A stretch of DNA of 63,945 bases, filler included, from Reclinomonas americana ATCC 50394 (GCA_048213135.1; 15 parts of 15 records of this genome joined end to end with filler, not necessarily neighbours in it); one strand, 5' to 3'. Numbered from the whole stretch's first letter, positions 695 to 62,790 are shown. The notes: generated by a model from the sequence alone, not told the origin. Translations and numbers: made by a program.

Positions 695-1029
695 CTGCAT
701 CATCCTCAGCGACTGCACGCACACACACGCACAGTGAGAGACAAGTGAAGAAATGAGAGGGAAAATCACACTAAACACAATGCACGCAACTGATTCGATT
801 GACTTCTGCTCTCATCTCATGTCGCACAGAGTCGAGGTCTTTGCCAAGGCGCTGCTCGACCTCTTGACGCACCTGTTTTGTGAAGAGAGAGAGTCAGAGA
901 GTGAGAGAAGACGTTCTTTTCTCTCTTTGTGTGAGGGTGACTGACCATGCGAAAGGTGACTTCCACTGCAGGATCTGCGCGCAACTCGCGCACAACAGCG
1001 CGCAGCACTGTCACTGTCTCCTCGTCCAT
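695..1029 (-). CDS. DEK C-terminal domain protein (UAF30/SWIB-type N-terminus), first exons only
   Basis: Exons 1029-946, 872-791 and 712-695 joined by GT-AG introns give MDEETVTVLRAVVRELRADPAVEVTFRMVRQEVEQRLGKDLDSVRHEMRAEVNRIIAEDDA, which fits the DEK_C pattern (T.r.VR..vE..lg.DL). Confidence 0.7.
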
Positions 1030-1066
1030 TGTGAAAGAGACAGCGATGAGGAAAGAGTGAGACTGA

Positions 1067-1814
1067 GGGTTACCGAGCGCGGATTTTCACAAAACGCGAG
1101 GTAACTCTTTAGCAAAGCATGGGAAAGTGTTTGCTGAATTAAGAGGATTGGGGAGAATACGCGCAGTGAACAGAAGGCGGTGAGCGAGCGGGTTGCCACA
1201 AGCCGGGGCGTGCACAAGTCGATTTTCAAGCTCTGTAATTAACCCTTACAGCAGTCGCTGTTCAATTGTGAAAGCGTTCCTTTTCATCAAGGGTGGTTGC
1301 CTAGATGCTACATCGATGTGCCTCTCCGTTAGCTACTCGAAGGAAACGAGTTGCCATGGATTTCAAGCACGGCAACCCTCACAGCAGTCGCTGTTCAATT
1401 GAGAAAGCGTTTCTGTTCATGCATAACTGTTTTGTATGTGCTAATGGCGAGTATGCCTATGTGCTTCTTCGTCAGCCGCGCTTAGAAACGGGTTACCACA
1501 AGGTCCTTTCACGGTAACCCTCATAACAATCGCTGTTCAACTGGGAAAGTGTTTCTTTTCGCGCATAACTGTTTTGTATGTGCTAATGGCGAGTATGCCT
1601 ATGTGCTTCTTTGTCAGCCGCGCTTAGAAAACGGGTTACCAAGGACTTCAAGCTCGGTAACCCTCACAGCAATCACTGTGCAATTGATAAAGTGTTCCTT
1701 TTCGCCCAGAATTGCGTAGGTGCTTTCGGTGAGTTTCCCTATGTGCTTCTCCGCCTGCCACGCATGGAAAACGGGTTGTCTCGACTGGGCGCGGAATTTC
1801 ATGCAAGGTGACCC
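1067..1814. repeat. Array of six ~125-160-bp units, each with an inverted GGGTTRCC...GGYAACCC pair, filling a bidirectional promoter
   Basis: Left arms at 1067, 1190, 1348, 1490, 1633, 1773; right arms at 1100, ~1238, 1371, 1513, 1656, 1807. A shared body resembling AACCCTCACAGCAGTCGCTGTTCAATTG-GAAAGYGTTYCTTTTC is present in four units. Confidence 0.85.
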
Positions 1815-1829
1815 TCAATCACATCACAA

Positions 1830-2954
1830 ATGATCAGGTGAGCGACCGCGCATCCCCTCCTCCTCCGCTGACGCACTGCTCTCACGCCATCCACACACAC
1901 AGTGAGCAAGTCATATCATTCCTCGGTCAGTCCCTCTCTCCCTCCCTCTCTCTCCCTCTCTCCCTCTCACTCTCACTCTCAATTACTCAGGCTGCGGCAA
2001 CATGAGCGGCGCACTTGTCCGCGGCCTCGTGCGCGCAGGCACCGTGGCGCCCACCCAAATCCACATTGTCGGGCGCACCGAGGTACACACCGCGCCACTG
2101 GCCGAGGAACTGACGGGCGTGCACGTGGCACCGTCCACAGTCGCCGCCTGCGAGGCCTGCTCCGTGGCCGTCATCGGTGTCAAGCCAGACGCAGTCGCCA
2201 CACTGCTGGACGAGTGCGGTGGCAGCTTGAGCGGGCGACTGGTGATCTCGATTGTGGCGGGCATGTCGATTGCGGGTCTGGAGGAGCGGTTGCCGGAGGA
2301 TGCGCGCGTGGTGCGCGTCATGCCGAATGTGTGCTGTCAGGTGGGCCAGGCGGCGACAATGATTGCGCCGGGGAGTAGGTGCACGGCGGAGGATGTGCAG
2401 ATGGCCAAGGCGATGTTTGAGAGCGTGGGCACGGTGCATCTGCTGGACGAGTACAAGATTGTTGCGCGCGAAGTATCGGAAGTTTCTTCGTGGTTGAGGT
2501 GTGCTTGCTGACGTGTTGTCGCAGAATGTGTTTACGGGGCTCGTGGGCAGCGGTCCGGCGTACGTGTTCACGTTCATCGAGTCGCTGGCGGCTGGCGGAG
2601 TGCTGCGTGGCCTTCCGCCGGCACTGGCCACCGAGTTGGTCACCCAAGTCGTGCGTCGCGTGCTTGCTGCGTGCGAGTGTGAGTGTGTGTTGAATGGGTG
2701 CGTGCAGGTCCTCGGAGCGGCGACCATGGTGAAGAGCTCGGGACAGCACCCTGCGGCGCTGCGTGATGCAGGTGCGCCATGTTGCCTGTGTATGGTGTGC
2801 ATTTGGGTGAGCTAACGACGAGTTGCGCGCAGTGACGAGTGCCGGTGGAACCACGATTCACGGACTGCATGCGCTGGAGGAGGGTGGCTTTAGAGCGGCG
2901 TGTATGAATGCGGTGAATGCGGCGTCTGCGCGTGCGGCTGAGTTGTTCAAGTGA
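1830..2954 (+). CDS. proC: Pyrroline-5-carboxylate reductase (multi-exon)
   Basis: Spliced protein [19 protein letters not shown]...IGVKP...ISIVAG...VVRVMPN...[19 protein letters not shown]...[25 protein letters not shown]; stop TGA at 2952-2954; five GT-AG introns. Confidence 0.95.
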
Positions 2955-3157: not shown

Positions 3158-6100
3158 ATGTCGGGGAAGAGAGGCCCATTGGCTGCCGCTGGTGGTACTG
3201 CTTCCTCGGCAGCCCGAGGGTTGTCATCGCCACAGTTTCACGTTGCTCCTATTGCCGAGGGTCCGCAGCTGGATGAGACACAAATTGACACGCGAATCCC
3301 CCGCTCACCTGGACTACGCGAGGACGATCCTGTGTTGGCACATGTGCGCGTGGCAGTGCATGGTGCGAGTCTGGATATGCAGGCGAGCATGCGAGCGCTC
3401 ATGATTGCAATGATGCTTGCGATCTTACTCGTTTCTGCTGTGACCAGAGTGTGATTGACAAGGTGGGCGACTACGAGGTTCTGCAAGTTGAGGCTGCATT
3501 CATGGCAGCGGACTTGGAGAACATCGATCGAGCGCGGAAAGTGCTCCGGTTGCGTCACTGCGTTTGTGTTTGTCCGTGTTGCCGTGCTCACATCCGCACG
3601 CATACGCAGTGCGCTGATCTACAAGCACGGAATGCTGCACAGTTGCGTTCGCAACGGTGAGCCGTTGCTGCACCGCATCGTCATGCGGAACAACAGAGAC
3701 GTGAGTGTCTGCGTTTCGGCTTCCTCTGTTATGCATGGACGCTCACTCTTGCCTGATCAGCTTGTCCACGAGATGCTGTCACTCGGAGGCAATGCCGACG
3801 AAACCATCAAGGAGGCCATTGTTTCGTGCATACCATGCACCCACAGCGTTCGTGCTCGCTCGTATGTTGACGTCGTTTGTGTCGTGCAGCGCACTGGCAA
3901 CGAGGAGGCAGCCCTCGAATGCACGCAGATGGGAACGAACTTATACACGATTGTCGAGAGCGACGGCAACTCGCTGCTGCAGTTGGTGAGCCTCGCAGTA
4001 GCTCGTTGAGAATGCTTGATCGCGTCGGACTCACTTGCCTGTTGTGCAGACTGCGCTCTACAAATTGCCGAAACTGTTCGAGGCAATGGCACGGCGACTG
4101 ACTGACAGTGAACGCAACCCATTCGGCACTGTGGCTGCGTATCTGGCACACAGGAACTTTACTGGCGGCAATGTGGTGCACTGCATCGTCGAGGAACGGT
4201 AAGGTGCCCGCGTTGGCGAAAATGGTCAACAACGTCTGTCTACGCGCTGCTCACGGTTCTGTTCAGGTCGCTGATGGAACGATTCGACGATTCGCTTAGC
4301 ACTGCCGCCACAAGTGCTGCTGCTGGATCGTCCTCTTCTCCACAGGTGCATATGCTGCGAACACTGAAACAGCTGGACGAGAAACAGTTCGGCGACTTGG
4401 TGAGTGGATGCAGATTCTGAACAGTTGCCAGGAGAGCATGCTGATGACTACTTTTCGCTCGCATAGTGTAACTTGGAGGACAACCAAGGATGTGTGCCGT
4501 ACGAAGTTGCATCGATGGAGTACGCCGAGATGTTGGCGCCGTACACTCACAAGGTACACACGGCCCCCTTATACACACTCCTCTTGTTGTGAATTGTCGA
4601 CATGTTCATCTGCTGCTTTCCAGCGACCTCTGCGTCCGCCATCACATCAGTCGCCAAGCCGTCTGCGAAGCGGTGAACAGCACCCTCTGGATCCGTTCAT
4701 CCACTCACGGCAATACAAGGTCCGTGCATCGTGCGACCCACATGATGGAAGCGCTGATCTGCTTACCGTTCGCCGTCCACAGTACGTGCTGGAAGTTTTG
4801 GAGATGCCGAAGAACGCAGGATCGCGGGGTGAAGTCACGTTGATTGCATCCGGCAGCGACAAGCATGAGCCATTGCTGAGGTTTGTGAGTAGCCGACCAC
4901 ATGGTGATATCTCACTTCCAGGTCTCCTCACAACACCATGTAAAACAGAGAGCTTTTGAGGCGCTTCGTGGACTATGTCGAATGGCGCCGAGACGATGAC
5001 TTCCAAGAGACACCACTTCATGTGGCAACTGCATCCTCGGCACATCAGGTAGCGTTTGCACTCTCTTCATTCTCTTCATCTCACGGCTCTCTGCCTACAA
5101 TGACGATGTGCGTGCAGTGTGTGGCGACGCTGCTCGAGTTTGGTGCAAATGTCGACGCTGAAGATTCACAGGGTGATACGCCAGTATCGTTCTCTGTCGA
5201 GCTGGGCGACGAGCGAATGTTTGAGATGCTTTCCGTCAGAAGTGCGTGTTTGCCAAGTGACTGGCCACGCAGACCCTTCACTAACTCTCACGGTGATGTG
5301 ACATGCACATAGGTCGGCGCCTTTACGAATATAACAACTCGCACGAAACACTGCTGCATGAAGCTGTGGCTACGGGCAGCCTTGGAATCATGCAACGACT
5401 TCTCAGTGGATTCAAGAGCAGCACCAGCTTCAAGACGGTTCACGACTTTGTGATGGCCGGCGATGAGGACAACGTGACAGTATTGCACTCGGCCATGTTT
5501 GCGGCGTTGCGTAAATCGTTGCAGTTGTGCGCATGCTTCACTGCGGATTGCTGATTGATGGTCTGAGGACGACAGGCGGACGCTAAAGGTGAACAGCTGG
5601 CGCACACATCGACTAACCGAGGCTCCACTGTCACCGCGTAGCCGAGAGTCACTGTTGGAGCGATTTGGATCTCCGCTCTCGTCGCCCTTGGGCGACTCAA
5701 TGACCAGTGAGGACATGGACGGTGAGTGCACAGCTCGCTCTGTTGCGTTCTGTTGCTCACAACACTGACGCAGGTGCTGATGCACTGTACAAGGTGGACG
5801 TGGATCCTCTGCAACCCGCAGATGTCGAAAGACAGATAGAACTGTTGCGCGCTCTGTGGACAGGTGGACGATGTGGACCGGCAGATGTGAGTCCAAAGCA
5901 CCGATCCACGCTTGTTGTCTTTTCAAGAGCGGATACTGATACAGTGCGCGTATCTTCTTGTTCCTCCGCGTGTGCTGTGCAATCAATAGCTGTTGCATAG
6001 CGATAACAGCGGCAGTCTGCCTATTCACTACGCAGCCAAAGCAGACGATGCAGCTTCTGTGGAGTTCATGCTGGTCACGGGGCGACTGAACCCCGATGTT

Positions 6101-9100
6101 TGCATGATGGAGCCGGCAAGAGTCGGGGCGACTCCGCTGGGCATCGCGGCTGCGTTGCGACACGCAGAAGTCTTGCGTGTGCTGCTGGATCATGGTGCTG
6201 GCGTGGATGTGCCGGATGCCTCGGGTCGACGTCCTCTGTACCTGGCGTGCAAGTCTGGTGCGTCTGCAGGGTATTCACTTGCTACGAGGTTTAGCTGCCC
6301 TTCTCATTTTCCGCATGCAGGAGCAATCGAGTGCGTGCGATTGTTGCTCGAGGCCGGTGCCGCAATCGAAGCGACCGTGTCACGGAAGAAAGGCGGAGAG
6401 TTGACGGCAGTGGACGCGTGTGTGCAAAGCCGGCATTCGAACGAGGCCAGCACGTGCCTCGAGATGCTGCTTAGGCAAGGTGAGATGCAAAGTAAGATGA
6501 TGACATATGTGCTCAAACTCAATTGAGGGCTTCTCCTCGGGCGCCTTCTAGGTGTTCCACCCAGCATTCGGGCTAGAGTCATGGATGCCGACACTGGAAA
6601 AATTGTTGAAGACGTGAAGCGTACGTTGCTCTACACCCGAAACGGTGCACATGAGCTCGTGAAGGAAATGGAGGTGCGTGACACGTTATTCGTGTGCAGA
6701 GGCCTGCACATGCGACAGGGAAGCACGCATTGCCAGACTTCAGCGCGATCTAATTTCATCACAGGACGAATGTGACCAAGCTCAACGTTTCACTGAAGCG
6801 CTCACCGTCACTACCCAGCAACTGAGACTGGAACTGTCATCCACCACCGCAGACCGTAATCGTCTCCAGAAGGCGTTCGCTGACGTTGAAATCGCGGCTG
6901 CCATCTCCGCCGCCGAGTGCAGAGACCTACGACAAAAGGTGGAGGAGATGGAAGGCCAGCTGCGTGCTCTCTTCCTCATGGATTTTCTCAGGTTTCTTGT
7001 TAATTACGTCGATGACGCTCCTGTATTTGACGTTTCACTTTTCTGTCAAACGCACAGCGACCGCCGTCCAATCTTGATGCTCACCGAAATCGTGCATGAG
7101 ATCATTCCTCTGGCACTCGGCTCTCTGCTACAACAACTCGTCAGTCGGTTCTTTCCTGGCGAATATGATATTGAGCAACTCTGCCTTCCTGCTCCGCCGC
7201 CGAGGTTGCAGTCGATTGCCTTTCCGATATGTTAGTTACCGTCACTTACATTCCGATTTGCAGATACTGTCGGATGACACTGGATAGACGCGGAAACATT
7301 CGCATGCGCTCTGTCGAGTTATATCCTTCCAACTACAAGGCAATCCGCGAATTCAAGCAAAGTGGAGTGACGACGGGCATGGATGTGTCGTTGCTGAGTA
7401 CGCTGCTGCTGTACACAACTTTCGTCTGTACCTCCACTTGCCATGATGGCGATCTGATGGACAGCCTCGTACGCCTCGATCGTGGCACACACAAAGACCG
7501 ATTGGCTGTGCCACTGCTCGCTGACCCGGCTAAAGTATGTCTCTGTTGTCCATCGGATGATCATCTTGTTTGACACGTTTCTCTGTAGATTCGAGCCGTG
7601 GAGAACTTGCGAGACGTGCGGCATCGTGTGTCTCACCTGGCCCGTCTGTCAGCATTGGAAGACACGGAGTACGTGAGCGTAATGCGGTTGGTTCGCGATT
7701 CACTTCACACTCTATTCCCCGATGGACAACACGAGAGCATACGACTCTTGTTCCGAGCATACGACAGTTCCGAATGCGCTCATCACAGCTCTGCGTTGTC
7801 GTTCATTTTTACTCATCCTTCAGTGCAGATGTTAGTCGAATCAATGTGACGGCCGAGTTGGTGAGGGAGAGAACTACCAAGTTCGCAATTCGAGCGCCGG
7901 TAGTGCCGTTCTCCGATTTGATGACTTCAAGACAACTTGCAATCGGTGACGCTTGTGTATGTGCTCGTGTCAGCGCCTTCCGGTGGTATGCATTCTCATC
8001 GCGTTGAGCTTCTGCGTAGGCCAAAATGCGATTTTTCATGCCACGCTTCGTCTCGGCGGTGTGCCGCAAACCGTTGCCTACAAGCGATACCTGGTGAGGC
8101 GACAGGCACGTGAGTTGCAGTCGGCGGACTGGAGACGCATCTACGAAATTTTCGAGAACGAGCACGCACTGTTGATGCAACTCGAGTTTCGTTGCTGTGC
8201 GATTGGTGTGCTCCATTGCCATCCATGGTAGTCATGAATCTGTGTTCGAGTTGTAGTCACCCACACATTGTGAAGCTGATGGCCGAGTGCAACGACGATC
8301 CAAGTGGTCTCGGTCTTGTTCTTGAGTTTGTTGGACGGGAAGAGGAGGATGGCGATGCCGAGACGCTGCATGATCTTGTGAGAGACGGGCAATTGACGAC
8401 CCTACAGCTGCTCTGTCTGCTCTTGCAAGTGGCGTCGGCGGTGGTCTACATGCATTCGCGTCGAGTTGTACATCGTGATTTGAAACCGCAGAGTTGCGTT
8501 TTGTGAGAACTGAGAATGATCATGGCAGAACAATAGTGCATGTGGAGAGAGTGCTGCGAGAAACTGAAAGAGGGAGTTCGTTCTGGCGACTTAGAGCACC
8601 TGTATTGCTGACGTCGATAGGTGACCAAGCTTCTCCCCATGTCGATGCTGGTGTCAGTACTCACCTCACACCTGGCATACAGATATTCTAATCAGCGACG
8701 ACCGAAGTGTTGCAAAGGTGTGCGACTTTGGGGAGGCAAAAATCCATGGGACACTTGGAAAAATGCAGTCGAACCACGGCACAGCTGCGTATGCAGCACC
8801 CGAGGCCATGCTGGACCAGGAGGTATGTGTTCCTCCGTGGTGTGTTGCAGTCTGTCGCACTCTTGCGTTATGAGTGGTTTTGTCAAGTGTTTGTTTGCCT
8901 CTCGCAGTACGACGAACGAGCGGACGTGTATGCACTTGGTTCACTTCTCTGGTTCATTGCCACTCGCCGAGAACCTTTCAGTGGAGTGACGCTGCCAGGC
9001 ATCATGCGCAACATGCATGACAAGGTCTCGCCTGGCAACCTGGATGATGAGGATGTGCGAGCAGCCGTGTCGGAGGATATTCGCAGTCTGATTCGCCAGT

Positions 9101-9277
9101 GCTGGGTTCCGTGTGGGTGCAGAGTTCATAAGTGTCTGGCGACGTGCGCTAATTTCTCTTTTGTTACAGAGGCCTCAGTCTACACGCGTGTCGTCGTCGT
9201 ATGTGCACGACGAACTGAAGCGCATTCTTGAGGCGGCGGGAGAAGCTGACGCAGCGCCGGCTGGGCCGTCACAGTGA
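3158..9277 (+). CDS. Ankyrin-repeat / coiled-coil / HEPN-like / TKL-type protein kinase (~20 exons)
   Basis: Ankyrin motifs QETPLHVA, GANVDAEDSQGDTP, GSLPIHYAA, GATPLGIAA, GRRPLYLAC; coiled coil at ~6700-6970; kinase motifs VAYK, HPHIVKL, HRDLKPQN, VCDFG, GTAAYAAPE, ADVYALG, LIRQCW; stop at 9275-9277. Confidence 0.9.
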
Positions 9278-10751: not shown

Positions 10752-10879
10752 NNNNNNNNNNNNNNNNNNNNNNNNNNNNNNNNNNNNNNNNNNNNTTAAT
10801 TAATTAANNNNNNNNNNNNNNNNNNNNNNNNNNNNNNNNNNNNNNNNNNNNTCTCTCTCTTGCTCAGTCGCTCAGCACT

Positions 10880-12463
10880 CACCAATATTGACATAGATAA
10901 TGGTCGGAATCAGCAGCCCGTTGGTGAGGAAAACGGCGAGTGTGTGCTTGCCCCTGTAGTTGGCCATCTTGGTGCGCTGCACCGCCGGGCAACAGCGGCA
11001 CAAGCAACCGAATGTGTCGATCAGCGCCAGTCCAATGCCCTTGAAGCACGGCTGCGCCACTACCGGCGCATCCTCGGCCTTGTTGGGCACCGGTGCCGAC
11101 GACAGCAGAGCGTTGCCGCTGCGGGAGGCGCCGGCGCCGGTCCGCTCGCCCTCCTCACGGCCGTCACCCTCATCGCCTTCTGCATCGGGTGCGCGCATCA
11201 TCTCCGGCTCCACCTTGCTGCTGCCCTGCTCCTTGTTCTCCTCTCCTTCTCCTTCCTCCTCGGCGTCGCTGTCGACCTCGTCGCCGTCCACCAGACTGCT
11301 GAGTGAAACCGTGCGCATCTCCACATCTTCGGTGGCGGCACGCGACGCCGGTGCCGACTTGGCGAATTTGGGACTCTCGCGCAGCGTGAACACGCCGAGC
11401 AGCACGGCCATACTTGCCAGTGTGGAGGAGACCACGGACGGCAGCAGGAAGGGGAAGGAGCGGAAGAATGCATTGTCGAAGAGCGCCCAGTGGGCGGCGG
11501 GGTTGGCCAGTGCGCCGCCGACGAGCGGACCGGCCATGAGGCCTACATAAGTGGGTGAATGAGTGAGCGGGAAGGGATAAGGGAGAGAAAAGAGGCCATG
11601 TGGACTCACCCAACCCCCACATGCCCGACATGACGGAGAAGCCACGAGCCTGCGACAGAGACAATAAAATCGCAAGCAGATGCCGGTGCCACCACCTGTG
11701 TCACTAACCTGATTGGTGCTGTCGGTCAACTCGGCTGTGCCACACATGGTGGTGAGATGAAGAAGCATTGAACGAAGAACAACAGGGTGCATCTCACCGA
11801 GATATGTCTTGGCTTGTGCGACATTCCCGCTGAGCAAGCCGGCCAGGGAGCGGAAGACGACAGCCGACGCAAAGTTCACTGCCGCAACACGAGGAATTTA
11901 GTGGAAGAGAATTTGTGCAACAAAGCAAGTGCACGACTCACCAGAGAAGCCAAAGCCGAGCGAGGTAATAATGAGTCCTGAGAGCGGATGGGGTGAATGG
12001 ACAGAAAAGAGGAAAGGAGTTGGAGAGATCACGCACCGGTGGTCCCAAAGATGAGCACCGGCCGCCTGCCCACTCGATCTGCCAGCGAGCCAAAGTATGG
12101 GCCCGAAAAGAATTGCGACATGGCGAATGATCCGGCCAGGAAGCCTGTGAGGGTGGGGAGGGAAAGGATGGGAGTGAGGGAGAAGAGGGTGGAGGGGGAG
12201 GGCGGGTGAAGAGGAGAAGAATGGGGAGAGAAAGGGGTTGAAAACGCAGCACAAGACGGGCAAGAAAAGCGGAAGAGGAGGAGGAAGAAGAAAAACAAGA
12301 TGAAGAGGGAGGAGGGGGATTGAAGGGGGAGGGAGATGAGAAGGAGAGGAGAANNNNNNNNNNNNNNNNNNNNNNNNNNNNNNNNNNNNNNNNNNNNTTA
12401 ATTAATTAANNNNNNNNNNNNNNNNNNNNNNNNNNNNNNNNNNNNNNNNNNNNTCCTCTCTCT

Positions 12464-12525: not shown

Positions 12526-12934
12526 CCCTGTCTCTTTCCCTTCTCTCCCTTCTCACGCACCTGCCCAATAACCAATCGCACTCTTCTCATGCGCCATCCC
12601 AAAGAACTCAATCATACTCGGCAAGTACGGAAACACATTCGTCTTCACAAACCAACAGAGAAAGAGAGAGAGAGAGAGAGTGAGTGCAAAAGAGAAAAGA
12701 GAACACACATCATTTGACACAAACGCAACATAGTTGAATGACTGCACAATAAGAGTGAGAGGAGCAGTGAGAGAGAGGTGCATGTGTGTGTGTGTGTCTC
12801 ACCTCGCAAAACTGAATGAGTGCAATCACAAGCAACTGCTTCAACGGAAGTGGTGTTCTCTTCACTGAGGTGGGCGAAGAAGAAGGAGAAGAAGAAGTGA
12901 CGGGAATCGCCACTTGAGAGGCTCCGCGTAGCAT
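10880..12934 (-). CDS. MFS transporter, ZIFL/DHA1-like (3' end truncated, spans a gap)
   Basis: TPLPLKQLLVIALIQFCE, VFPYLPSMI, IGYWAGFLAGSFAMSQF, MFS motif A GSLADRVGRRPVL, RSLAGLLSGN, AELTDSTNQARGFS, GPLVGGALANPA, FPFLLP. Confidence 0.9.
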
Positions 12935-30505: not shown

Positions 30506-30694
30506 GAATGATGATGATTGTTGTGCAAAGAGTGTTGTCTCTGATGTTCGTTATCGACTGAGGGTTTGCTTGGCAGAAGGCGCGCGCGGCCGGTNNNNNN
30601 NNNNNNNNNNNNNNNNNNNNNNNNNNNNNNNNNNNNNNTTAATTAATTAANNNNNNNNNNNNNNNNNNNNNNNNNNNNNNNNNNNNNNNNNNNN

Positions 30695-44800: not shown

Positions 44801-44964
44801 GGGGCGAAGGAGAAGGGGAAGGGGAGAGGGAGGGAGAGAAGGGGAATGGGAGGGAGGGAGAAAGAAGGAGGAGAAGGACAAGAAGAGCAACAACAAGAAG
44901 AAGAAAGAAAGAAAGGAGAGGGAAGGAGAAAGAAAGGAAGAAAGGAGTGGACACAGCGTGCTTG

Positions 44965-45059
<95 letters not shown>

Positions 45060-46680
45060 NNNNNNNNNNNNNNNNNNNNNNNNNNNNNNNNNNNNNNNNN
45101 NNNTTAATTAATTAANNNNNNNNNNNNNNNNNNNNNNNNNNNNNNNNNNNNNNNNNNNNACCGATGGTGTCGGAGGGTGGTACGTGACTGCGTCGCATGT
45201 TTGCACTCTGTAAGTGTGCGTGTTTGAAATCTCACTTTTGTTCCCGTCGCAGGCTCGAAGACAGTGGTGGCGCCGGTGGAAGTCACTGCTCTCAGCGGCC
45301 ATCGCATTGCACACATTGCCGTGGGTGACTGGCATAATGCGGTGTTGACGAGTTGCGTGCGTGGGAGAAGGATAGAGAAACAGGTTGTATTAGTGCCACC
45401 CACTGCGTCTGAGAGCGCGAGAGTTCATCGTGACAGCTAAACTAGAATAACTTGCTTGTGGTTGAGCAAGTGGGTGCATTTTCAACTGCTGGGGTGTGTT
45501 TCCGAGTCTGACAGAGAGAGAGAGAGAGAGAGAGAGAGTGAGTATGAGTGAGCGTGTCGAGAAGAGCCAGAGAATGAGTGAACACACAGCATTTAGAGCT
45601 TAAAAGCGTACATGTGAAGTCTGTGAGTGGTCGCGTTATTCGTGTGAGCGCGCTGTGCTGCTCTCTGTCTTCGCCACTCACATTTTCTTGCCGCCATCAC
45701 AGGCGACTATCGTGTGTTCACGTGGGGCGCCGGCTCGGAGGGCCAACTCGGTCACGACATGCAGCCACTGCACGACATTTCGCAGCCGACTGAGGTGCAG
45801 CAGTTGTCGGAGTGGGGCAAGCGCATCAAGCGACTGGCCTGCGGAACGTGGCACACAGTGGCTCTCGATGGTGAGTCGCACCACCCTTCCCCTGACGCAT
45901 GTGTGTGTGGATGTGCTTACTTATTTGTTCGCTCGTGCAGAGGACGGCCTGGTGTTTGTGTGGGGAAGTGGCTCGTTCGGTCAACTGGGCGTGTTGGTGT
46001 GCGACTCGCGCGACGTGCCGATTTGCGAGGAGCTGGTCGTGCCGACGCCGATTGTGCTCGAGTTTTTCCAACGACACAACATCATCGTGGATGAGGTGGC
46101 GTTGTCCTTGATTTGTCTGTTTGTGTCATCGTTCATGCCTTGATCCTCACCCATTTATTGCCACCAACAGGTGGCATGCGGCAGCTGCCACACCGTGGTG
46201 CTTTCGCGCAACGACTGTGTGTACACCTTCGGCAACAATATGTACGGTCAGGTTGGTGCCGGCTGCCACAAGCAGCGCGGCGAGGATGTGTACGAGAATT
46301 TGTGGCTGCCGATTCCGGTGATTTTGGATCCAACAATTCCAGGGTGCGTTAGGGGAGAAGGGGAAGACAAGGAGGAAGAGAGGGAAGAGGAGGAGAAGAG
46401 AAGAGGAGAGCAGACTGCGATTTGAGTGAAAGTGAGGAGTGGGAATGGGGAGAGACGCGATAGATCAAGGGGAAGAGTGGTTTGTGAGTGTGTGCAGTGA
46501 TAGGAAGGGGAAATATGAATGAGTGCAGAGAGTGAGTGAGCGTGAGCGAGTTTGCGAGTGTGCGCAGTGAGAGGAAGAGAAAGTATGAGTGAGTGCAGAG
46601 AGTGAGTGAGAGGGAGTGTGTGAGAGGGGAGTTTAGGGAGAGAAGGAGGAGACGAGAGAGAACTGAGGAACGGGGACTGG

Positions 46681-47283: not shown

Positions 47284-47747
47284 GAGTGCGGGAAGGAGAG
47301 AAAGGGGGTGACGGGAAAGAGATTGGGGCGAAGGTGCGACAAGTTAAGGGTGAGCGGAGTGAGAGCGGCGAGATGATTGTTATTGGTGTGAGTGCACGGA
47401 GTTGCATCGAGCGAGGGAGCGTTGGGACAGGGAAGTGAAGAGAGCACTTCAACAAGATGTGAAGCAATTCAGTGGTTCGTGAGTGGAGGGGGAATAGGCG
47501 CGGTGCAAGAAATAGAGGTGGAGAAAGCGTCAGCAAGAAATAGGAGCAATTGAGTCTCGATGAAAGCAATGCTATCCTCCTCTTTCTCTCTCTCTTTCTC
47601 TCTCTTCCCTCTCATTGCCCGTCACCCTCACCCCTTGCCCTCTCGCANNNNNNNNNNNNNNNNNNNNNNNNNNNNNNNNNNNNNNNNNNNNTTAATTAAT
47701 TAANNNNNNNNNNNNNNNNNNNNNNNNNNNNNNNNNNNNNNNNNNNN

Positions 47748-50700: not shown

Positions 50701-50756
50701 AAAAGAGAGCTGAAGCAAGAAGGTCTACAGCGCAGGCACAACACAGTCTCTCAATG

Positions 50757-50787
<31 letters not shown>

Positions 50788-51411
50788 GAAGAGAGAGAAA
50801 GAGGAAGAGAGAGAGAGAGAGCAAGGCACATGGGAGGCTCAAATCATGACACATACACATCATTCAGTCTCACCAAACGCCCAAAGAGGAGAGAGAGAGT
50901 GTGTATGTGTGTGCGCGCGCGTGAGAGAGAGAAAGCAGGAAGGCAACGATCACAAAACACATCAATCATCTCTCAATCACCCTCTCTCTCCATCTCTCCA
51001 CGCAACAGTAGTCACATTCAACGGCGGCTCCCCACCCATCGCATTCCTCGTCATGATCGGACTCAACGGCAAGCGCCGCACACCACGCACCGCCTCGGCC
51101 ACAAACCCCTCCGCCACAACCACCACCTGCTGTTGCGCAGGATCACTGCCCGTCACCGTCAACTGCGGAAGCACCATCTGTCGCCCACTCACACTGCGAC
51201 GCGCAGCTGCCGCGCGGCGACGCCCAAACCGCGGCGGCGATGAGGATGAGGGCGAGGAGGGGAGGAGATCGTGCGCGTGCGTGCCGTGGTGGTGACCGCT
51301 GGATTTGCCGCGACTGTCGTGCGTGCGTGTGTGTGAGTGGCAGAGAGCAGGCAGAGGCAACAGCAACAGCAGCGCGCGTAACATTTCAGTGGTGTGCAAC
51401 ACGAGATCCAT
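47748..51411 (-). CDS. Hypothetical multi-exon protein (3' truncated)
   Basis: Series of coding-like blocks bounded by GT-AG (51411-51007, 50023-49832, 49262-49080, 49030-48870, 48610-48477, 48175-48060); no family recognised. Confidence 0.55.
50340..50760. repeat. Intronic tandem repeat, three units of ~140-155 bp
   Basis: GAGAAGCGCACAGAGCTCGA...AGCGCAGGCRCAACACAGTCTCTCRATGGAGA occurs three times. Confidence 0.85.
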
Positions 51412-52273: not shown

Positions 52274-55200
52274 TTAGTGTTTCATCCCATATGTACACCC
52301 GAAGTTGCTTACGAAGATCCAACCGCCGACCACGTCACCGACACCGATTGCACTGCGCCGTCGACGACACACACATGTGAGAAAATCATGAACAAAAACA
52401 ATCACCCCAGCAAATCGCATCGTGGCACACGCACCATTGGCACTGCCGGTGACGCACACTTGCAGACCGCCGCCGACAATAGCCGCAGTCGCCGTCACAC
52501 TGAACGTGGTGCCACTGGCGGCGGCGGCCGCTTGCCAGCCACTGGCAAACGCAGACACCACCGGCGCGACACCGAAAGCGGGAAGTGCAGTGACGAGTTG
52601 GCACTGGCCGCTGGCCACGCTGACCACGCCCGAGGCCATGGTGTATGTGGGCGCTCCTGTCGTCAACGACGCGTTGGAAAGCGCCAGCCAGCTGTACTGC
52701 AGTTCACGGATGCGTGTGTTGGCGTACGTCCGTGTGCTGTGTGGCGTCACGGAAGCAAATAAGCCCAAAGCATACAAGCGGAACAAGAGGAACAAGGCAC
52801 TCACCGGTGATTGAATCCGCCGGCCACAACGGACGTGACTGCATTGTCAAACCGGGATGCCAGGCTGCCGCCGCGTCCCCACACACCCTGCGGCGCAAGC
52901 AACACCGCCGCCGTCGCTGGCATGCCGGTGACACCAGTGATGGTGCGGAACTGTGACCGGTTGCCGACGCTGGTGAGGTCCATGGCACCGCCGCTCATAA
53001 AGTAGGAACCGGCTGCCGTGAACGCGTACTGTGTCGGGGCCGCCACCGCCAGCCACGTCAAACCAAAGCCGCGCACAGCCACCGTGTCGGGTGACGTGCA
53101 CACGATCGATACGCTGGTGGTCGTCGTAGATGGTGAGGCGGCGCAGAAAATGCTGAGGTCGGATCCACCGTCGGCCTGCAGGCCGTTCAGACCAACCACG
53201 ACACGAGGCACGGAGGCTGGCAGGAATTGAAATAAAGTGAGTGTGAATGACTGACACAACAGAGGGTGGATATGAGGACTCACCGAAAGTCTCCGGATAC
53301 GCCAGCTGCATGCTGAAACTGCGCATTCCCGACGTGGTGACCCATCCACCGCTTGGCACGTCGACACGACCAGATTGTACGTCTGCAGAGGGCCAGAGTG
53401 AGACAAGTGATACACAACAAACGGGTGGAAGAAGAGTGCAGCGGCACGAAACGATTTCCAATCGCAAGCGTTCCGCCAGTCACGGCAACCGCAGCTTCGC
53501 CATCACGCCGCGCGATGCAGGCCTTGAGAGCGTGCCCGCGAGTCGTCTTGACGCTGATTTGCAGCTGCGTGCACAGTTGCACACCGCCCGAGGTCGTGCA
53601 CTTGAGGGCGCAGTAGCTGGTCGCCGCCGAAGAGCAGTCGGTGCGGGTGACCACCACCGACGGGTCGGAGGTAGTCGAGCAGGAGGCCGCCAGTGGCACA
53701 AACGACACCACATTGGTGAGCGGCCTGAGGTTGGTACCAGTAAAGGTGATCACGGTCGCCAGATTGGCATGCACGGTCACAGGCGACATGGCCGTGGGCG
53801 ACGGCTGTGGGTCCGCAGCTGTGACACAAACCAGCTCATGTGAGCACACGAAAGCAAATACAGTTGGAAACACATTGTCGACAAGACGCACTAGTGCAAG
53901 AGGCTCCAGTCCAGCCCGCGGCACACGAGCACACAGCTGCTCCACTGTCGNNNNNNNNNNNNNNNNNNNNNNNNNNNNNNNNNNNNNNNNNNNNTTAATT
54001 AATTAANNNNNNNNNNNNNNNNNNNNNNNNNNNNNNNNNNNNNNNNNNNNGGAGAAAGAGGGAGAAAGAGGGAGAAGGAGGGAGAAGGAGGGAGAAGGGG
54101 GAGATGGAGGGAGAAGGGGGAGAAGGGGAAGGAACGATGAGCGAGAGAGAGGGTGCAGGCGATGGATTGTTCCGCGCGATCGGTTGAAGCTCTCTTCGTG
54201 CGTTTTAAAGAGATAGAGAAGTGGAAGTGTAGTCAATGATATGAAGGGTGAGTGCGACATATTGTCACGCGCTGCTCTCTCCTCTATCGTTCTCTCTGCG
54301 CGCGTGTACACGTACCATCGGTGTGGTGGAATCCACCTCGCCAGTGAGCGGAACTGCAGCGTTGAAAAGAGTGGCGCGAATGAGCGACGAGCGCGCCGCC
54401 AGACCCTGTCCGCTGCTGTTCAGAGTGCCCGGATCGTTGGGGTAGAATCGGCGGTAGTATTCGCGCAGCACGGCAGAAACACCAGCGGCGTTCGGCGTCG
54501 CCATACTCGTGCCCGAGTACGCCACTGTGTGTGCGGTGAGGTCGTTCAAATTGCTACGCGCACCCTGCCCACAAATGTCGTTGGTCGCCAGCGACATGGA
54601 CGAGTAGCTGTCGACACAGGAAAGTTAGTGGGAAGGGAAGCAAAATTGGAAAGAAGCAAGGGGAGTGCAACGCAACAGCGGGTTGCCAGGCATCGCAATG
54701 TCCACTCCCATGCGACCGTCGCTGGCGGGGCCTCGAGAGCTGAACGAGGCGATGTTGTTCGATGGACCCGAGTCGAGCGTCACCGAAGCGCCGACACTCA
54801 GCACGTTCTTGGCGTGCGCCTGCGTACTGTTGTTGCAATGGTAAAAAAAAGGATGAGCGCTGAGTAATCCACGCGGCTCGAGCGTGCTGGTGGAATCACC
54901 TGAGAGTGCTGGCGCCCGGACCGCTGTTGGAGGCGGCGAAGAGAATCTGGAAGTCGCGGTGCTGGTTGGCGAAGCGGTCGGTGAGTTGCGCCCACGAATC
55001 GTAGGCGCCAACACCACCGCCCCAGGAGTTCGTGCTCAGACGTGCGCCAGCTGTCAACACAGAATGTCAGGAGAGGGAGGGAGGGGGAAAGGGAGAGAGC
55101 ATGGCTCACCTCCGTACTTGACATTGTAGTACTGTCGCGCCGAGAAACACAAGCGTGTGAGCATTCAGCAGAGGAGAAGGAGGGAGAGGGAGGTAGGGAG

Positions 55201-57489
55201 AAGGGAGGAGGAGGGAGGAAGACAGAAAAAGAGACCTTGACACATAGTCAAGAATTGTACAATGCACAAAGCAGAGCAGAAAAGGAGAGAGAGATAGTGA
55301 GATAGGGAACAAAGGACAGGAACCAGGCGGTATGAGGCACAGGACATAAAGCGTCGAACAATGAAGAGAGTGGAACATACGGATTTGAAACAAGAAGAGA
55401 GCATAAAGCAGAGCAAAATGCAGAGAAGTAGAGAGTAGACGAGCAGAAACACGAGACTCGGAATCAAAGAACAGAACGCAGAGCAGAAAGGGGAGAAAGA
55501 GAAAGTGGCAGGGAGGCACCATCCCACCCGGCGACATACCGTCTCCGGATCAGGCACGCTCAGGTACTGCGCGCTGCCAGTGCCAATGTCGGCCAGGAAG
55601 CTGCACACAACACAGTTCCGTGTTGAGCGAAGACTGCCCATCTCAGGCTACGCGCGCGCGCGCGTGGGACTGCGACATAACATCTTGGCCTTCTTCGCCA
55701 TGCCGTTGTGGGTTGTCTGCGTGCCACCAGCAGCGTCGCCGTTGCCCGCCACACTGCCACTGACGTGCGTGCCTGAGAAGCGTTTACGCGTCAGCACGAC
55801 AATAATAATGTAAGGGTGCCAGCGGAGACACCCGCTCACCGTGACCGCCAGTGGTGTTCTCGCCCGAATCCGCAAAGCTCCAGTAGCCAGCGACCTTCCG
55901 ATGCGCCACCTTGCCGGCGGGCGGAGTCGTAAAGTCGGTAGTGGTGTCGGAGCTCAGCTTGAAGCCGGCGTTCGGGTTCGAGTCGTAAAAGTAGCAGTGA
56001 TTGTACTGACGACACACACACTCATCAGCGCACTGACGAAAAAAACGGGGCATCGCAAGCCTGGTACGCACATCAAGACCCGTGTCGCCAACGGCCACAA
56101 TCTCGCCGTCGCCGGTGAGGATGTTGGTGAACGGCTCCGAGCCGGGGACGCCGCTTTGGTAGTTGAATCGTGCACGCGAGTTGAAGATGGTCGGCTGCAG
56201 CGGCACGTCAGCAGCTGTCGAGATAGACAGTCACAAACAAAGAACACTCACCGGAATGTCGACCTCCACCCACACCACACGCGGGACCGAGAGCAAGAGC
56301 TGCGAGGCCGCGCCAAGACTGGCCGGCTGCACGAAAGCCACAGAGAACGCATCGTGCGACAGCAGCTTGGTCTCGCGCACGTCAAGTCCGCGGCCGGCGA
56401 GGAGCGCTACCACAGACGACACAAAGTCGGTCAGCGATCGCTCCTGCGGCGACAGCATGACGTGCACGTTGAGCTTGTTGGGCACCGGCGCATCATTGTC
56501 GCTCGACTGCGTGTGGAAACCGCTGCTGCTGCTCGCCACATCACTCGTCATGCTGTCGACGTTGACGAGGTTGCGCGAGGCCTTGAAGGCCTCCTGGAAC
56601 GGCAGCACGTTGATAACGAGGTCGGCCAGGGCCACTTGCACCAAGTCCACTGCCTCGCGCGTGGTGAACACGAGGTAGGCGCGAGTGGGCACGAAGCGCA
56701 CGTCGACCAAGGAGGCGTCGCTCATGCCCGTGGCCTGTGTGTGTGTGTGCCGGTGAGGAGAAGGAGGAGAAGGAGCTCGAGGAGGAGAAGGCGTACCTGA
56801 GCAATGGTGTTCTGCAGACGACGGCGCACTTCGGGGGAAGTGACACGCATGGCGAAGAGGAATGCGTGGTTGAAGGCGGAGGTGGAGGAGGCAATGGCAG
56901 CAGAGGAGGTGGACGAAGGCATCACCGTCTGCAGTGCGCTCACAAAGGGACTGCACGGACGTGGGCGAGTGAGAAGACAGCAGAGAAGCAACAGAAGAGG
57001 GTGCAAAAGTGTGCAAAAGTGTGTACAAGTGAGTGCAAGTGTGTGCAACAGTGAGTGCAAGTGAGTGCAAGTGAGTGCAAGTGAGTGCAAGAGTGTGCAG
57101 AAGTGTGCATATGTGCAAGTGAGTGCAAGTGTGTGCAAGTGTGTGCTAGTGAGTGCAGAAGTGTGCGTAAGTGTGTGCAAGTGTGAGCAAGTGTGTGCAA
57201 GAGAGAGTGAGCTTGTGCACGCAACGGAGTGTCGGCATCGACTGAGCGCAGTGACTCTGCAGCTTGCACCGCAGTGTGCGGGTCAATGCGGAAGCCATTG
57301 ATCAGGATCTGCTCTCAAACGCAGAGTGAGATGTGAGAAACTAGACAAGGGAGACGCAAATGCACTCACCTTTCCGCGATCGGCGTCGTGCGAGTCGAGC
57401 TCAGCAGAGGCCAGTGGGAGGAGGAGAGCACAGGAGAGGACAAGGAGACAGAGGGTGAAGACAGCGAAGGCGCGCGCCCGACGCTGCAT
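52274..57489 (-). CDS. Secreted subtilisin-like S8A protease (KP-43/TagC type) with C-terminal IPT-like and H-type lectin-like domains
   Basis: Signal peptide; catalytic triad VAVGDTGLD, GHGTHVSGS, SGTSMATP; STNSWG, FAASNSG, AKNVLSVGA, FSSRGPASDGR. After the gap come VQSGRVD...F..VPRVVVGLNGL...TWLAV-type repeats. The 3' end is uncertain. Confidence 0.88.
57000..57200. repeat. Intronic 10-bp minisatellite (GTGWGTGCAA)n
   Basis: Directly visible tandem 10-mers and variants. Confidence 0.85.
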
Positions 57490-58388: not shown

Positions 58389-58461
58389 TGGACCCTGCGA
58401 GACTCGAACCCGCGACCTTCGTATTACAAGTACGACGCTCTGCCAATTGAGCTAAGAGCCA
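58389..58461 (-). tRNA. tRNA with anticodon UGU (Thr by anticodon) and an atypical acceptor stem
   Basis: TGGCTCT TA GCTC AATTGGCA GAGC G TCGTA CTTGTAA TACGA AGGTC GCGGG TTCGAGT CTCGC AGGGTCC A; 73-nt cloverleaf with A and B boxes, followed by TTTTT. Confidence 0.92.
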
Positions 58462-59334: not shown

Positions 59335-59369
<35 letters not shown>

Positions 59370-61844
59370 TCACTCCCTCTACACTCCCTTTGCACTCACG
59401 TTCCTCACTCTCCTCACCTTCCCTCACTCTCTCTCTCTCCAGTGAAGACGATGCGGAGCTGTCTGTGACGCTGAGCAACGCGCCACTGGCGGCCAGTGAC
59501 AAGGCCGCCAATGCGCTTCCGCAGTGGAGCGATGAGGAGTCGCAGCAGCAGGAGAGCGACGAGCAGGAGCAAGAGTGGATGGAGGAGCAAGATGAGGGCG
59601 AGGAGGAGGAGGAGGAGGAGGAGGAAGAGGACGAGGACAGTGGCGAGTTGAATGAGTTGTTGGTGGGTTGCTGGAGGAGGGAGATGGCAGGGGAAGGAGA
59701 GGGGGAGACAGGGGAGGATCGACACCGTGTTTGCAAGGTGGACAGGGCAACCCTCTTCTCTCTCTCTCTCTCTCTGTCGCACCGCGCTGGGCTGTGGTCG
59801 CAGAAAGGGAGGGTGAACATTGCAGTGTTCACATCACGTGCAAGAGAGGTTTACGATGTGTTTGCAAGTGGGACAAGTCAATCCTCTCCTCTCGCACCGC
59901 AGTGCGCTGTAGTAACACAACAGGGGAGAGTGGAGAGGATAGTTCTTGAGAGGGCTGACGAAGTGTTTGCAAGGTGGACAAGTTACACGAGTCTCTCTCG
60001 CCCTGCTGCAAGCTGTAGTCACGCAGGAAGAGAGGGTGAAAAAGACAGTAAGGGTGAGGGTTGACGATGGAAAAGTCAATCCTCTCCTCTCGCACTGCAG
60101 CAAGCCGTAGTCTCACAGGCAGAGAGGGCGGAGAAGACAGTTGTGGAGAGGGTTGACGAAGTTCTTTGCTCGTGGACAAGTCTCATACGAGTCTCTCGCC
60201 CTGCTGCAAGCTGTAGTCACGCAGGAAGAGAGGGTGGAAAAGATAGTTGTGGAGAGAGCTGACGAAGTGTTTGCTTCTTCTCTCGCACTGCTGTGAGTTG
60301 TCGTTCAGAGGAGAGAGAGAGCAGGTTGTGGACAGGGAGGGTGGGAGGATGACTCTGTGCACTGCAAGCCAACCCTGCGTGGCTACAGTTCGCTGCAGCG
60401 AGAGAGCGAGAACAGAGTGCAACCTGTCCATCATTCACCTCCCTCTTGACAACTCGTGGCAGGTGTCGAAAACACCGCATTGCATGGCATCCCTTCGCGT
60501 GAGACTACAGTAGTGCGAGAGAAGACGAAGAGCGCGGGCAGGGCAGTGCTTACGACACGTGCTGTTAGATGTCAAGAGAGAGGCTGACGATGTGTCTTGC
60601 GACAAGTCAATCCTCTCCTCTTTCACTGCAGCGAGCTGTTGGCTGGGGTTATTATTGGGTGGACAAGGTAGAGCTCACAATACGTGTATTGAGTTGAAGA
60701 CTTTTGGATGACACATGGACGAGAGTCACACGCCCTTCCTGGCGTGGATGAGTTCTGCAGCAAGTTTAGAGGGAGAAACGAAAGTGGGAAGGACTGTGTG
60801 AGCGTAACAGAAACGGTAACACCCGTGTTGCGTGAGATTCCTTCCCGTCCTTCTCTTCTCTGTTCTCGTCTCCTCGCAATGATCGTCAGTGTTGTCTCTT
60901 CTCTTCTCGTCTTCTGTTTGCCTCCCTTCTTCTCCTTTCTCTGCTCGCCGCTCTTCTCATCCTTCAGTTTTCTTCCCGCTGTGCTTGTTTGCGTTGACTT
61001 ATCTCTCACACCTCCCCTCTTCATTTTGTACTCTTCATCTCTTTCTCTCTGCTTTCCTTAAGTCTCTTCCGTCTTTCTGCCTCTCTGTTGATTTCATCGT
61101 CTCATCTTCATCTACAATCAGTTTGCCTCCCATCACCCACCTTCTTTTTCTCTCACACTAACCTTCCCTCTCTCACTCCCTCCCTTCCCCCCCTCCCTCC
61201 CTTCCCCCCTCCCTCCCTTCCCCCCTCCCCTCCCTTCCCCCCACCCTCCCTTCCCCCCTCCCTCCCCCTTTTCCCTCCGCCCACCCCAGCTCCAGCTCGA
61301 CGAACTGGAAAGCTCCCTCGACGACGACATGGACGACCAGCAGGACGAGGAGGAGGAGGAGGCCTCCGCCGAGGCCGAGTCCACCAACATCAAGCGCCTC
61401 ACCCCGCGCACCTTCCGCCCCACCGTCGTCAACAACAACAAGCTGGTGCTGGTCCTGTTCTACATGCCGAGTTACGTCGTCGTCGTCGTTGCTGCCCCTG
61501 CTGCAGTGACGTGAGCTCACCCCCGTGTCGCACACACACACAGCCTGCCCGCACTGCCAGAACTTCATGCCCACCTACAACCGCCTCGGCCGCATGTTGG
61601 GCGACGTGGACGGCGTGGTGCTCACCAAGGCATGTCGATGACGTGCATCTGTTTTTCATTGTTGCGTGCCCACTCACGATCGAAACAGATGGACATTTCG
61701 CAGTACGAATCACCAGTGGACGGCGTCGACTCGGTGCCGACACTCGTGGCCTTCCCGCCCAGTGACAAGTCGCGCGCGGTGGAATACCAAGGCGACCGCA
61801 CTCTGGCCGACTTGCGTCAGTTTGTCGCGCAACACAAGGAGTGA
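58909..61844 (+). CDS. Signal-peptide, acidic-region, single thioredoxin-domain (PDI a'-like) protein
   Basis: Signal MRPSTAAAHLLLALLIACIALLAFTANA; D/E-rich exons; LVLVLFYMPTCPHCQNFMPTY...VDSVPTLVAFP...VEYQGDRTLADLRQFV. Confidence 0.88.
59720..60640. repeat. Intronic degenerate repeats
   Basis: AAGTCAATCCTCTCCTCT at ~59875, 60073 and 60604; GCCCTGCTGCAAGCTGTAGTCACGCAGGAAGAGAGGGTG at ~60000 and 60198. Confidence 0.7.
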
Positions 61845-61987
61845 GAGAGACCATGGTTCAAAAGAAAAGCCGCTCCCTAAGAGAAAGAGAGCGAGTTGTT
61901 GTGTAAACAGGCTAAAACATGGGGGAAAAAAAGGCAGGGACCAAGTTGTTTTCATTCTCTTTAAACCTGCACAGCCGAGTGGGGTTT

Positions 61988-62790
61988 TTAGCTGGGCAGC
62001 TGCAGCCAGTACTGCCGATTTTGCATCAGCTGCGCCATCCACGGTTCCAGAGCCGGTGACAAGCTGACGAGGGCCTCGAACAGCGGTGTGGCCATGTGGT
62101 CGATGAAGCCGAGCTGGCTGGCGCGGCGGCCGACCTGCGGGGGGAGGAGAGGTCAATAGGGGAAGGGATTTTTGTGCGAAGCTCCTCTTCCCTGTCTACT
62201 GCTGACACTGGCAGCGTTCTCCTCTTCTTGCCGCATCGATTCTACATGAGTGCATTGATCTGTAGCAGCTACTTCGAGCAGACTCTCGAGAGCAAGACGC
62301 GACCGCTCCTCTCTCTCTCTCACACTGTCACTGCTTGTCTGCGTGTCTGCCTGTTAGTCAGTTTGCATGCGTGACTCGCTGACTCTGTCTCCCTTTCTCT
62401 CTCTCTCTCTCTCTCTCTTTCCATTTTCCCTCCTCCCCTCCTTCCCCCCATTTCCACGCAACTGTCTGATGTCTGTCGAGCATCTGCGGCACGGTCATCC
62501 CGAGCTGCCGCTGCATGTCGCCCTCATTCCAAAACTCCTCCTCCACGCGGTGCGACCACTCCAGGTGCAAGTGGAGTGGCTTGGTCGGGTGCGAAATGTC
62601 GGCGCCCTTGAGCAACAACTTGAGGGCCAGCATGCGACTCCGATCGGTCGACAGCATCTCCGTGAGGGCGGTCTTGCCGCGCTGCTGCAGCTCGGTGACC
62701 TCGGAGCGCAGCTCCTCCACCAGCTCGCGGTGGTGCGCCATGTCGGTGGCCAGCACGAGATCGAGAATGGTTTTGCGGAAGCGCTTCCAT
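61988..62790 (-). CDS. Class I cyclic nucleotide phosphodiesterase, C-terminal exons
   Basis: FRKTILDLVLATDMAHH, LLKGADISHPTKP, WSHRVEEEFWNEGD, SQLGFIDHMATPLF, NRQYW. Confidence 0.93.

Follow-up and report, generated by a model that had tools for sequence, protein, structure and literature searches.

A one-base-displaced class of 5′ splice sites beside ordinary GT-AG introns in predicted genes of Reclinomonas americana

Can introns whose conserved G-T pair stands one base further in than usual be a regular part of a genome? The question is raised by a stretch of 63,945 nucleotides (nt) from Reclinomonas americana ATCC 50394 (GCA_048213135.1), referred to as a whole as the window, in which an earlier note had described, next to ordinary donors (5′ splice sites) of the GTGAGT and GTGCGT forms, an abundant second class with T at +3 and G at +6. 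The note proposed that the lineage routinely uses a bulged pairing register or carries variant U1 or U6 small nuclear RNAs (snRNAs). After the GU, no intron position is as conserved as the G at +5, and in these donors another base takes its place. The window is made up of 15 contigs, each 1 to 10.8 kb long, joined by linkers of the form N44-TTAATTAATTAA-N44, so that genes flanking a linker are not genomic neighbours, and all gene models used below are ab initio predictions made in this analysis. As these models show, GT-AG introns in the eukaryote of the window start in two co-existing ways, often within one gene: an ordinary one with the consensus G|GTG(A/C/T)GT (class A) and a second one with the consensus W|GTT(G>T)CGT(S) (class B).

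All 24 sites listed in the earlier note bear the motif described for them (on the minus strand the coordinate is that of the +1 G), and 23 of them are GTTNCG(T). The other one, GTTGTGT at 43143-43149 (plus strand), is ambiguous and is not taken as class B; the models prefer a canonical GTGTGT donor that follows in frame after 3 nt, at 43146. The heptamer GTTGCGT occurs 37 times on the two strands, against 12.73 ± 3.29 expected from 100 dinucleotide shuffles, none of which reaches 37. To prevent circularity, we wrote a Viterbi gene finder that is blind to the donor and demands only GT there; its codon usage was seeded from open reading frames (ORFs) with Pfam support, and its intron score is made of length, interior composition, branch motif and acceptor only. 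Out of 8057 GT sites this model called 162 (2.0%) as donors, and the commonest single heptamer among them was GTTGCGT, used at 13 of its 37 occurrences. The broader GTTNCGT was used at 18 of 58 sites, a rate to be set against 2 of 85 for GT[ACG]NCGT (Fisher p = 1.3e-6), none for GTTNAGT (0/15), GTTNTGT (0/45) and GTTNGGT (0/13) (p = 7.6e-8 for GTTN[AGT]GT together), and all other GT sites (p = 2.5e-17). GTTCGT was never used (0/24), nor was GTTGAGT (0/7), while GTTTCGT was used at 5 of 11 sites. The chief canonical forms were GTGAGT (14/103) and GTGCGT (15/98), as had been proposed. Among the 40 GTT donors called blind, 21 were GTTNCG, compared with 128 of the 1491 GTT sites at large, which places G at +6 after GTT well above its background. 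The donor-blind model recovered 12 of the 23 listed GTTNCG sites and later models nine more; 61471 and 62462 were missed by the gene models and were placed by homology.

Protein homology fixes six class B junctions, in a pyrroline-5-carboxylate reductase (P5CR) gene, a kinase, a RUS/UVB_sens gene, an RCC1 domain, the CxxC site of a protein disulfide isomerase (PDI)-like protein and a phosphodiesterase (PDE). The first of two cuts before GT that had been predicted from restored protein motifs falls in the kinase catalytic loop, HRDLKPQ|N|ILIS. There the exon 8258-8491 ends at position 127 of the Pkinase profile, the split codon a|at gives Asn, and the next exon starts at 129, so that the intron, of 190 nt and running from GTTGCGT to ACAG, must be 8493-8682 (plus strand). 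The second, FYMPT-CPHC, is also borne out: the 73-nt GTTACGT intron at 61471-61543 (plus strand; missed by the Viterbi model) divides the PDI-like thioredoxin domain into FYMP, a split-codon T and CPHC, where PDIs have FYAP-W-CGHC. Its upstream exon ends on the FYAP of PDIs in a weak match (E about 1), with four of four matches being PDIs, its downstream exon aligns with the CGHC site from the first Cys (E 9.6e-5), and exactly one residue, that of the split codon, stands between the two. In the RUS gene the 122-nt GTTGCGT intron at 33083-33204 (minus strand) separates profile positions 164 and 165. Two RCC1 repeats are contiguous across the 65-nt GTTGCGT intron at 44645-44709 (plus strand), with profile positions 4-48 of 50 upstream and 2-26 in the next exon, the acceptor having been misplaced by the Viterbi model. 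The PDE gene has a (GA)n-rich GTTGCGT intron of 328 nt at 62135-62462 (minus strand): the PDEase_I match 100-202 runs to the last residue of the exon and the match 207-237 begins at residue 5 of the next one, the profile standing at 203 across the donor and resuming at about 203-204 past the intron. For the 64-nt GTTGCGC..CAG intron of the P5CR gene (2461-2524, plus strand), the spliced form scores best against a hidden Markov model (HMM) of 60 homologues, with 288.2 bits compared to 283.0 and 278.4 for the alternatives, a modest margin given that the 283.0-bit form uses a GC donor 3 nt downstream; the exon after 2524 starts at position 6 of the P5CR_dimer profile.

How large is this class? 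Taking all model runs and the earlier list together, donors were placed at 33 of 58 GTTNCGT sites, 24 of 37 GTTGCGT sites and 8 of 70 GTTNCG[ACG] sites, and of the 14 eukaryotic contigs, 12 carry GTTNCG donors. The earlier list is extended by about 12 solid members, the one at 24259 being less sure. The 41 GTTNCG donors include doubtful ones at 50445 and 50604, which lie within a 145-nt tandem repeat, and a few others in weak gene models. A run with a mixture of donor types, restricted to genes above 30 bits, gave 180 introns, 79 of them canonical (GT[AG]NG), 34 of class B and 67 unclassifiable; by these models class B would be roughly 30% of the introns with a classifiable donor. In the donor-blind run it made up at least 13% of all predicted introns (21/162). 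These shares depend on imperfect gene models, which put 61471, the long intron at 62462 and the acceptor of 44645 in the wrong place. The two classes alternate inside single genes.

The two classes differ at the donor and hardly anywhere else. Class A has, in percent, A39 at -2, G68 at -1, G87 at +3, A42/C37/T18 at +4, G100 at +5, T61 at +6 and G53/C32 at +7. Class B has T44/A29/C18/G9 at -1, then T at +3, G79/T15/C6 at +4, C100 at +5, G100 at +6, T76 at +7 and G41/C26 at +8. Positions +4 to +8 of class B thus mirror +3 to +7 of class A, the G, T and S of +5, +6 and +7 reappearing at +6, +7 and +8, with the exception that the A, C or T found at +4 in class A is reduced to C only. The exon side changes as well: G stands at -1 in 54 of 79 class A introns versus 3 of 34 in class B (p = 2e-9), rarer in class B also than the G fraction of 0.316 in predicted coding sequence (p = 0.002). 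No class B donor has the canonical register of G at +5 together with G at -1, since +5 is always C. Information is concentrated on the intron side in class B (8.1 bits from +3 to +8 versus 4.8 in class A, partly by definition) and is lower in the exon (0.32 versus 0.80 bits from -3 to -1). All modelled class B introns are GT..AG, and continuity of frame and residues is evident in the six junctions above. At the other end, a branch motif (yTnAy) lies 10-40 nt before the 3′ end in 56 of 79 class A and 28 of 34 class B introns, CTCAC being the top motif in both (23/56 and 14/28), with a median branch-to-3′ distance of 18 in each; the 3′ end is CAG in 61 of 79 and 24 of 34, respectively. Median lengths are 67 and 73 nt, interior composition is equal and phases are similar.

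Since the two classes have the branch motif and its distance in common, as well as the 3′ end, length and composition, one type of spliceosome probably serves both classes, and the shared 3′ features together with the alternation of classes within single genes argue for the major one. The explanation we prefer, although we give it only about an even chance, is that the major (U2-type) spliceosome removes class A and class B introns alike, and that, for class B, the contacts which snRNAs make beyond the GU would move inward by one base, leaving the U at +3 looped out. The shifted contacts would be made by U1 first and then by the ACAGAGA box of U6 on the G-U pair, and cleavage would still take place in front of GT. 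The 5′-splice-site reader of this lineage would be altered, either through a changed U1 end or through a second U1. A U1 5′ end with a G facing the C, and a C facing the preceding G, would match GUGCGU in full, and under such a U1 the form GU-U-GCGU would be the sole bulged one strong enough to function. The reader is probably altered because C is invariant at +5, T is required at +3 and G is avoided at -1, none of which canonical U1 pairing can yield.

The motif excess, the donor-blind enrichment, the junctions fixed by homology, the spread over contigs, the shared 3′ features and the displacement by one base all fit this picture. So does a hypothetical guide adapted to GUGCGU, which would pair with class B at -7.3 to -8.6 kcal/mol versus -4.9 to -6.5 kcal/mol for unused variants. 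Skipping the U at +3 gives a mixed result: GTTGCGT becomes GTGCGT, a main canonical form, but no shifted version is in use of GTGAGT, which is just as common (GTTGAGT and GTTNAGT both being unused, as counted above), and GTTTCGT becomes GTTCGT, which is itself never used. Other points weigh against it. The used and unused heptamers differ by only 1-3 kcal/mol on that guide, which leaves the requirement for T at +3 unaccounted for and would favour a G at -1 that is in fact depleted. GTTTCGT pairs poorly with every guide tried. The share of class B is rough, 67 of the 180 donors being unclassifiable and many of those false. The junctions depend on the ab initio models, and the altered-reader step is pure inference.

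A bolder version, which we put forward tentatively as a minority possibility, is a major spliceosome with two codes, in which a second reader (a U1 paralogue, or a remodelled U1 together with U6) with a guide matching GUUGCGU would serve about a quarter of the introns. Closely akin to it, and somewhat more doubtful, is a dedicated U1-like paralogue whose 5′ end would be complementary to all seven bases of GUUGCGU without any bulge, ordinary U1 reading class A. Such a guide would explain why class B has a rigid seven-base consensus on the intron side and none on the exon side, and why neither T at +3 nor C at +5 can vary, as expected of Watson-Crick partners; complementary to the whole of GUUGCGU, it would pair with class B at -11.1 kcal/mol versus -4.2 to -9.2 kcal/mol for unused variants, and a precedent exists in the U1 gene copies with differing 5′ ends reported for a diplonemid (PMC12621601). 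However, members with GTTTCGT or GTTCCGT would be mismatched to it (-4.4 kcal/mol), GUUGUGU would pair well (-9.2 kcal/mol) yet GTTNTGT is unused, and a G at -1 would again be favoured where it is depleted. Nor did the Rfam search of the window reveal such a gene: it contains no snRNA gene, even at E ≤ 1, the remaining matches being low-complexity noise, and the only family above its gathering score is a tRNA gene at 58389-58461 (minus strand; 56.3 bits).

Less likely still, and indeed improbable, is that ordinary canonical U1 reads class B through a bulged U at +2/+3 or a register shifted by one, that is, a human minority class which happens to be commoner here. The motif can be parsed as GU + U + GCGU, what stands at +4 to +8 repeats the class A pattern of +3 to +7, and such registers have been proven in human cells (PMC4856993). 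Duplex energies were computed with the canonical U1 5′ end, by nearest-neighbour rules without pseudouridine or proteins, and are no more than indicative. On this canonical end class B reaches only -0.6 to -1.4 kcal/mol, weaker than heptamers that are unused (GUUGAGU, -3.8 kcal/mol); with U or A at -1, RNAduplex finds a helix of only 3-4 base pairs, and no non-canonical register is clearly stabler than the canonical one. A bulge on canonical U1 also predicts that A at +5 should be no worse than C, although the A forms are unused, and would need G at -1 to be enriched in compensation, when it is depleted. The human +2/+3 bulge class, moreover, amounts to 68 predicted sites among 201,541 (PMC4856993). 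The obligatory C at +5, the depleted G at -1 and the weak predicted pairing thus disfavour a simple bulge on canonical U1, so that of the bulged register originally proposed for these donors the displacement by one base is supported and the ordinary U1 is not.

A diverged minor spliceosome (U12-type-like), with changed specificity of U11 and U6atac, is very improbable. It would share with class B a rigid 5′ motif on the intron side, the lack of an exon-side consensus and genes held in common with the major class, but the class B motif is unlike the U12-type donor, the branch motif, branch distance and 3′ end are indistinguishable from those of class A, and about a quarter of the introns would be an extreme share for it. 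Classification as U12-type introns proper was rejected on donor and branch motifs, the donor being GTT[G/T]CGT and the branch as in class A.

The weakest explanation, an artefact of misplaced donors, of homopolymer errors turning GTGCGT into GTTGCGT or of mobile introns with a common end, has in its favour a noisy gene finder, a fragmentary assembly with a contaminant contig and the two members (50445 and 50604) within the 145-nt tandem repeat, but it is largely refuted and hardly credible in view of the six junctions fixed by homology, the donor-blind enrichment with its matched controls, the fact that sequencing errors neither alter the -1 base nor create GTTTCGT, and the interiors of the 113 class A and B introns, which are alike only in low-complexity runs or tandem-repeat copies. 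Introner-like mobile introns were tried as a candidate by all-against-all blastn of these 113 interiors, the 23 rows at E ≤ 1e-3 representing only low complexity or copies of the 145-nt repeat. Homopolymer sequencing error was ruled out by the reasoning on the -1 base and GTTTCGT given above, and a mixture of organisms by single genes in which class A and class B introns alternate.

The remaining class B introns were called by the donor-blind model unless otherwise stated. A GTTGCGT intron at 713-790 (minus strand) lies in a short gene fragment without homology support. The ankyrin/kinase gene has a GTTGCGT intron at 3549-3609, and further along the plus strand there are a GTTTCGT intron at 3821-3889, a GTTGCGT intron after an ankyrin exon with weak Ank matches (5506-5575), a GTTCCGA intron at 7767-7828 and a GTTTCGT intron at 8186-8256, before a kinase exon that matches from Pkinase profile position 57. 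The end of the kinase domain is followed by a GTTCCGT intron at 9106-9169 (plus strand), found by the later models (it3 and mix) and preceded by an exon matching Pkinase 174-244. A predicted donor GTAGCGT at 5049 in the ankyrin gene, with G at -1, resembles class B but has A at +3; this heptamer was called at one of its three occurrences in the donor-blind run, and the site may represent an uncommon variant or an error of the model. Next come GTTGCGT at 12643-12729 (minus strand; it3 and mix), GTTTCGT at 14676-14753 (plus strand) and a GTTGCGT donor at 15790-16015 (plus strand), whose acceptor is less certain and whose gene model scores low.

Several members are new relative to the earlier list. 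These comprise a GTTGCGT intron at 25828-25917 (minus strand) after an LRR exon (upstream LRR_4 match, 1.3e-19), another at 29834-29899 (minus strand) with a downstream Sld5 match, in the same Sld5-like gene as the previously listed GTTGCGT intron at 30094-30184 (minus strand), and two GTTGCGT introns of the Dcc1 gene at 31449-31514 and 31763-31824 (plus strand), the latter between Dcc1 profile positions ~270 and ~269-271. The RUS gene holds a further GTTGCGC intron at 33895-34032 (minus strand), also new. A GTTGCGT intron at 38704-38773 (minus strand), on the earlier list, belongs to a weak gene model. The RhoGEF-PH-RCC1 gene carries, on the plus strand, GTTTCGT at 43550-43618 and GTTGCGT at 43785-43841, and a GTTGCGT intron found by it3 and mix precedes an RCC1 exon (44411-44488, plus strand; downstream profile 4-48). 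This gene (42223-46140), with the order RhoGEF (DH) - PH - PH-like - RCC1, spans two contigs across a linker and has at least 11 short introns, both donor classes being present. Two GTTGCGT donors with unsettled acceptors were obtained in the mixture run only, at 45352-45358 (plus strand), with a poor intron score, and at 51000-51006 (minus strand). Also new, all on the minus strand, are GTTGCGT introns at 47963-48037 and 48175-48308, a GTTGCGA intron at 48855-48920, a GTTTCGT intron of an H-lectin-like gene at 53383-53452, a GTTGCGT intron of the subtilase gene at 54608-54676, where the Peptidase_S8 match reaches ~209-211 upstream and resumes downstream, and a 275-nt GTTGCGT intron with a 20-nt tandem repeat at 56951-57225.

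The linkers lie at 10752-10851, 12354-12453, 16166-16265, 18106-18205, 25268-25367, 27227-27326, 30595-30694, 35782-35881, 37491-37590, 41885-41984, 45060-45159, 47648-47747, 53951-54050 and 62836-62935. Fourteen contigs, with a GC content of 0.54-0.60, are those of an intron-dense eukaryote, with predicted introns of about 68 nt in the median. Pfam anchors on stop-free ORFs were obtained for P5CR, the ankyrin-kinase, MFS, a second kinase, LRR, TLC, Sld5, Dcc1, RUS/UVB_sens, RhoGEF-PH-RCC1, H-lectin, subtilase and PDE. The P5CR gene (2002-2954) has three spliceosomal introns, and its nearest relatives among 5.8 billion proteins, at no more than 43% identity, are for the most part bacterial or metagenomic, so that the database seems to contain nothing closely related to this organism. 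For the PDE, the Atlas likewise yielded generic eukaryotic clusters only. Genes and the spaces between them hold many tandem repeats, their units 21 to 290 nt long, together with (GA)n and (CA)n runs (66-614, 1364-1777, 17096-18090, 38076-38599, 50353-50769 and 59871-60274); the 145-nt repeat at 50353-50769 contains recurring donor-like copies of GTTGCGC and GTGCGC that the gene models take as introns. The contig at 62936-63945 is of a different kind, with a GC content of 0.69 and an intron-less piece of a molybdopterin oxidoreductase/ferredoxin-reductase fusion, whose product is 90-91% identical to 1136-aa proteins encoded on bacterial contigs of megabase size and 61-69% identical to those of its named relatives, Methylobacterium and Bradyrhizobium. 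To judge from these matches, it is bacterial and probably a contaminant of the assembly.

What would such a class mean? Registers that displace the +5 G are known only as a rarity in humans, and here about a quarter of the introns would be displaced by one base. With strict rules of its own (T at +3, C at +5, no G at -1) class B is a natural experiment that bears on how U1 binding, the handover to U6 and the choice of the cleaved bond are coupled, and it predicts an altered snRNA or protein reader. Should the two-code spliceosome prove true, the position of the +5 G would be set by the guide RNA that hands over the site and not by the catalytic core. In practice, class B is missed or misplaced by gene finders that describe all donors with one matrix, as happened here at 61471, 62462 and 44645, so that annotating this lineage without a model of the second class would introduce systematic errors.

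A literature search on the motif and on protist donors that are shifted, bulged or otherwise unusual, with most subscription journals outside its reach, brought up no GTTGCGT-type class of donors, which may nonetheless have been described before. Among known systems, U12-type introns resemble class B in their rigid intron-side donor, their lack of an exon-side consensus and the genes they share with ordinary introns, but class B has another donor motif, the branch and 3′ end of the ordinary class and a far higher frequency. In the diplonemid Sulcionema specki, U1 gene copies have different 5′ ends, and an alternative U1 sequence for pairing with the 5′ splice site has been proposed to match unusual donors (PMC12621601); there the variant U1 has been seen and a discrete shifted donor class is not described, whereas here we have the donor class only. 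Donors in several diplonemid species are (G)/GTATG-like according to the same source, so that class B is not the diplonemid pattern. The closest likeness is with the human bulged and shifted registers as reported by Tan, Roca et al. (2016; PMC4856993), in which the GU is kept, cleavage occurs before it, an extra U stands right behind it and the G-U of +5/+6 lies one base further in. All validated non-canonical U1 registers together make up 1.5% of 201,541 human sites there, and the +2/+3 bulge class is rarer still, as given above, in contrast to about 34 class B introns per 79 canonical ones in our models. Class B differs from them also in its obligatory C at +5, its unused A form, its depleted G at -1 and its pairing with canonical U1, predicted to be negligible. 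It would have, in sum, the geometry of the human bulged registers, but it fails two of the tests that define them, follows other sequence rules and is far commoner.

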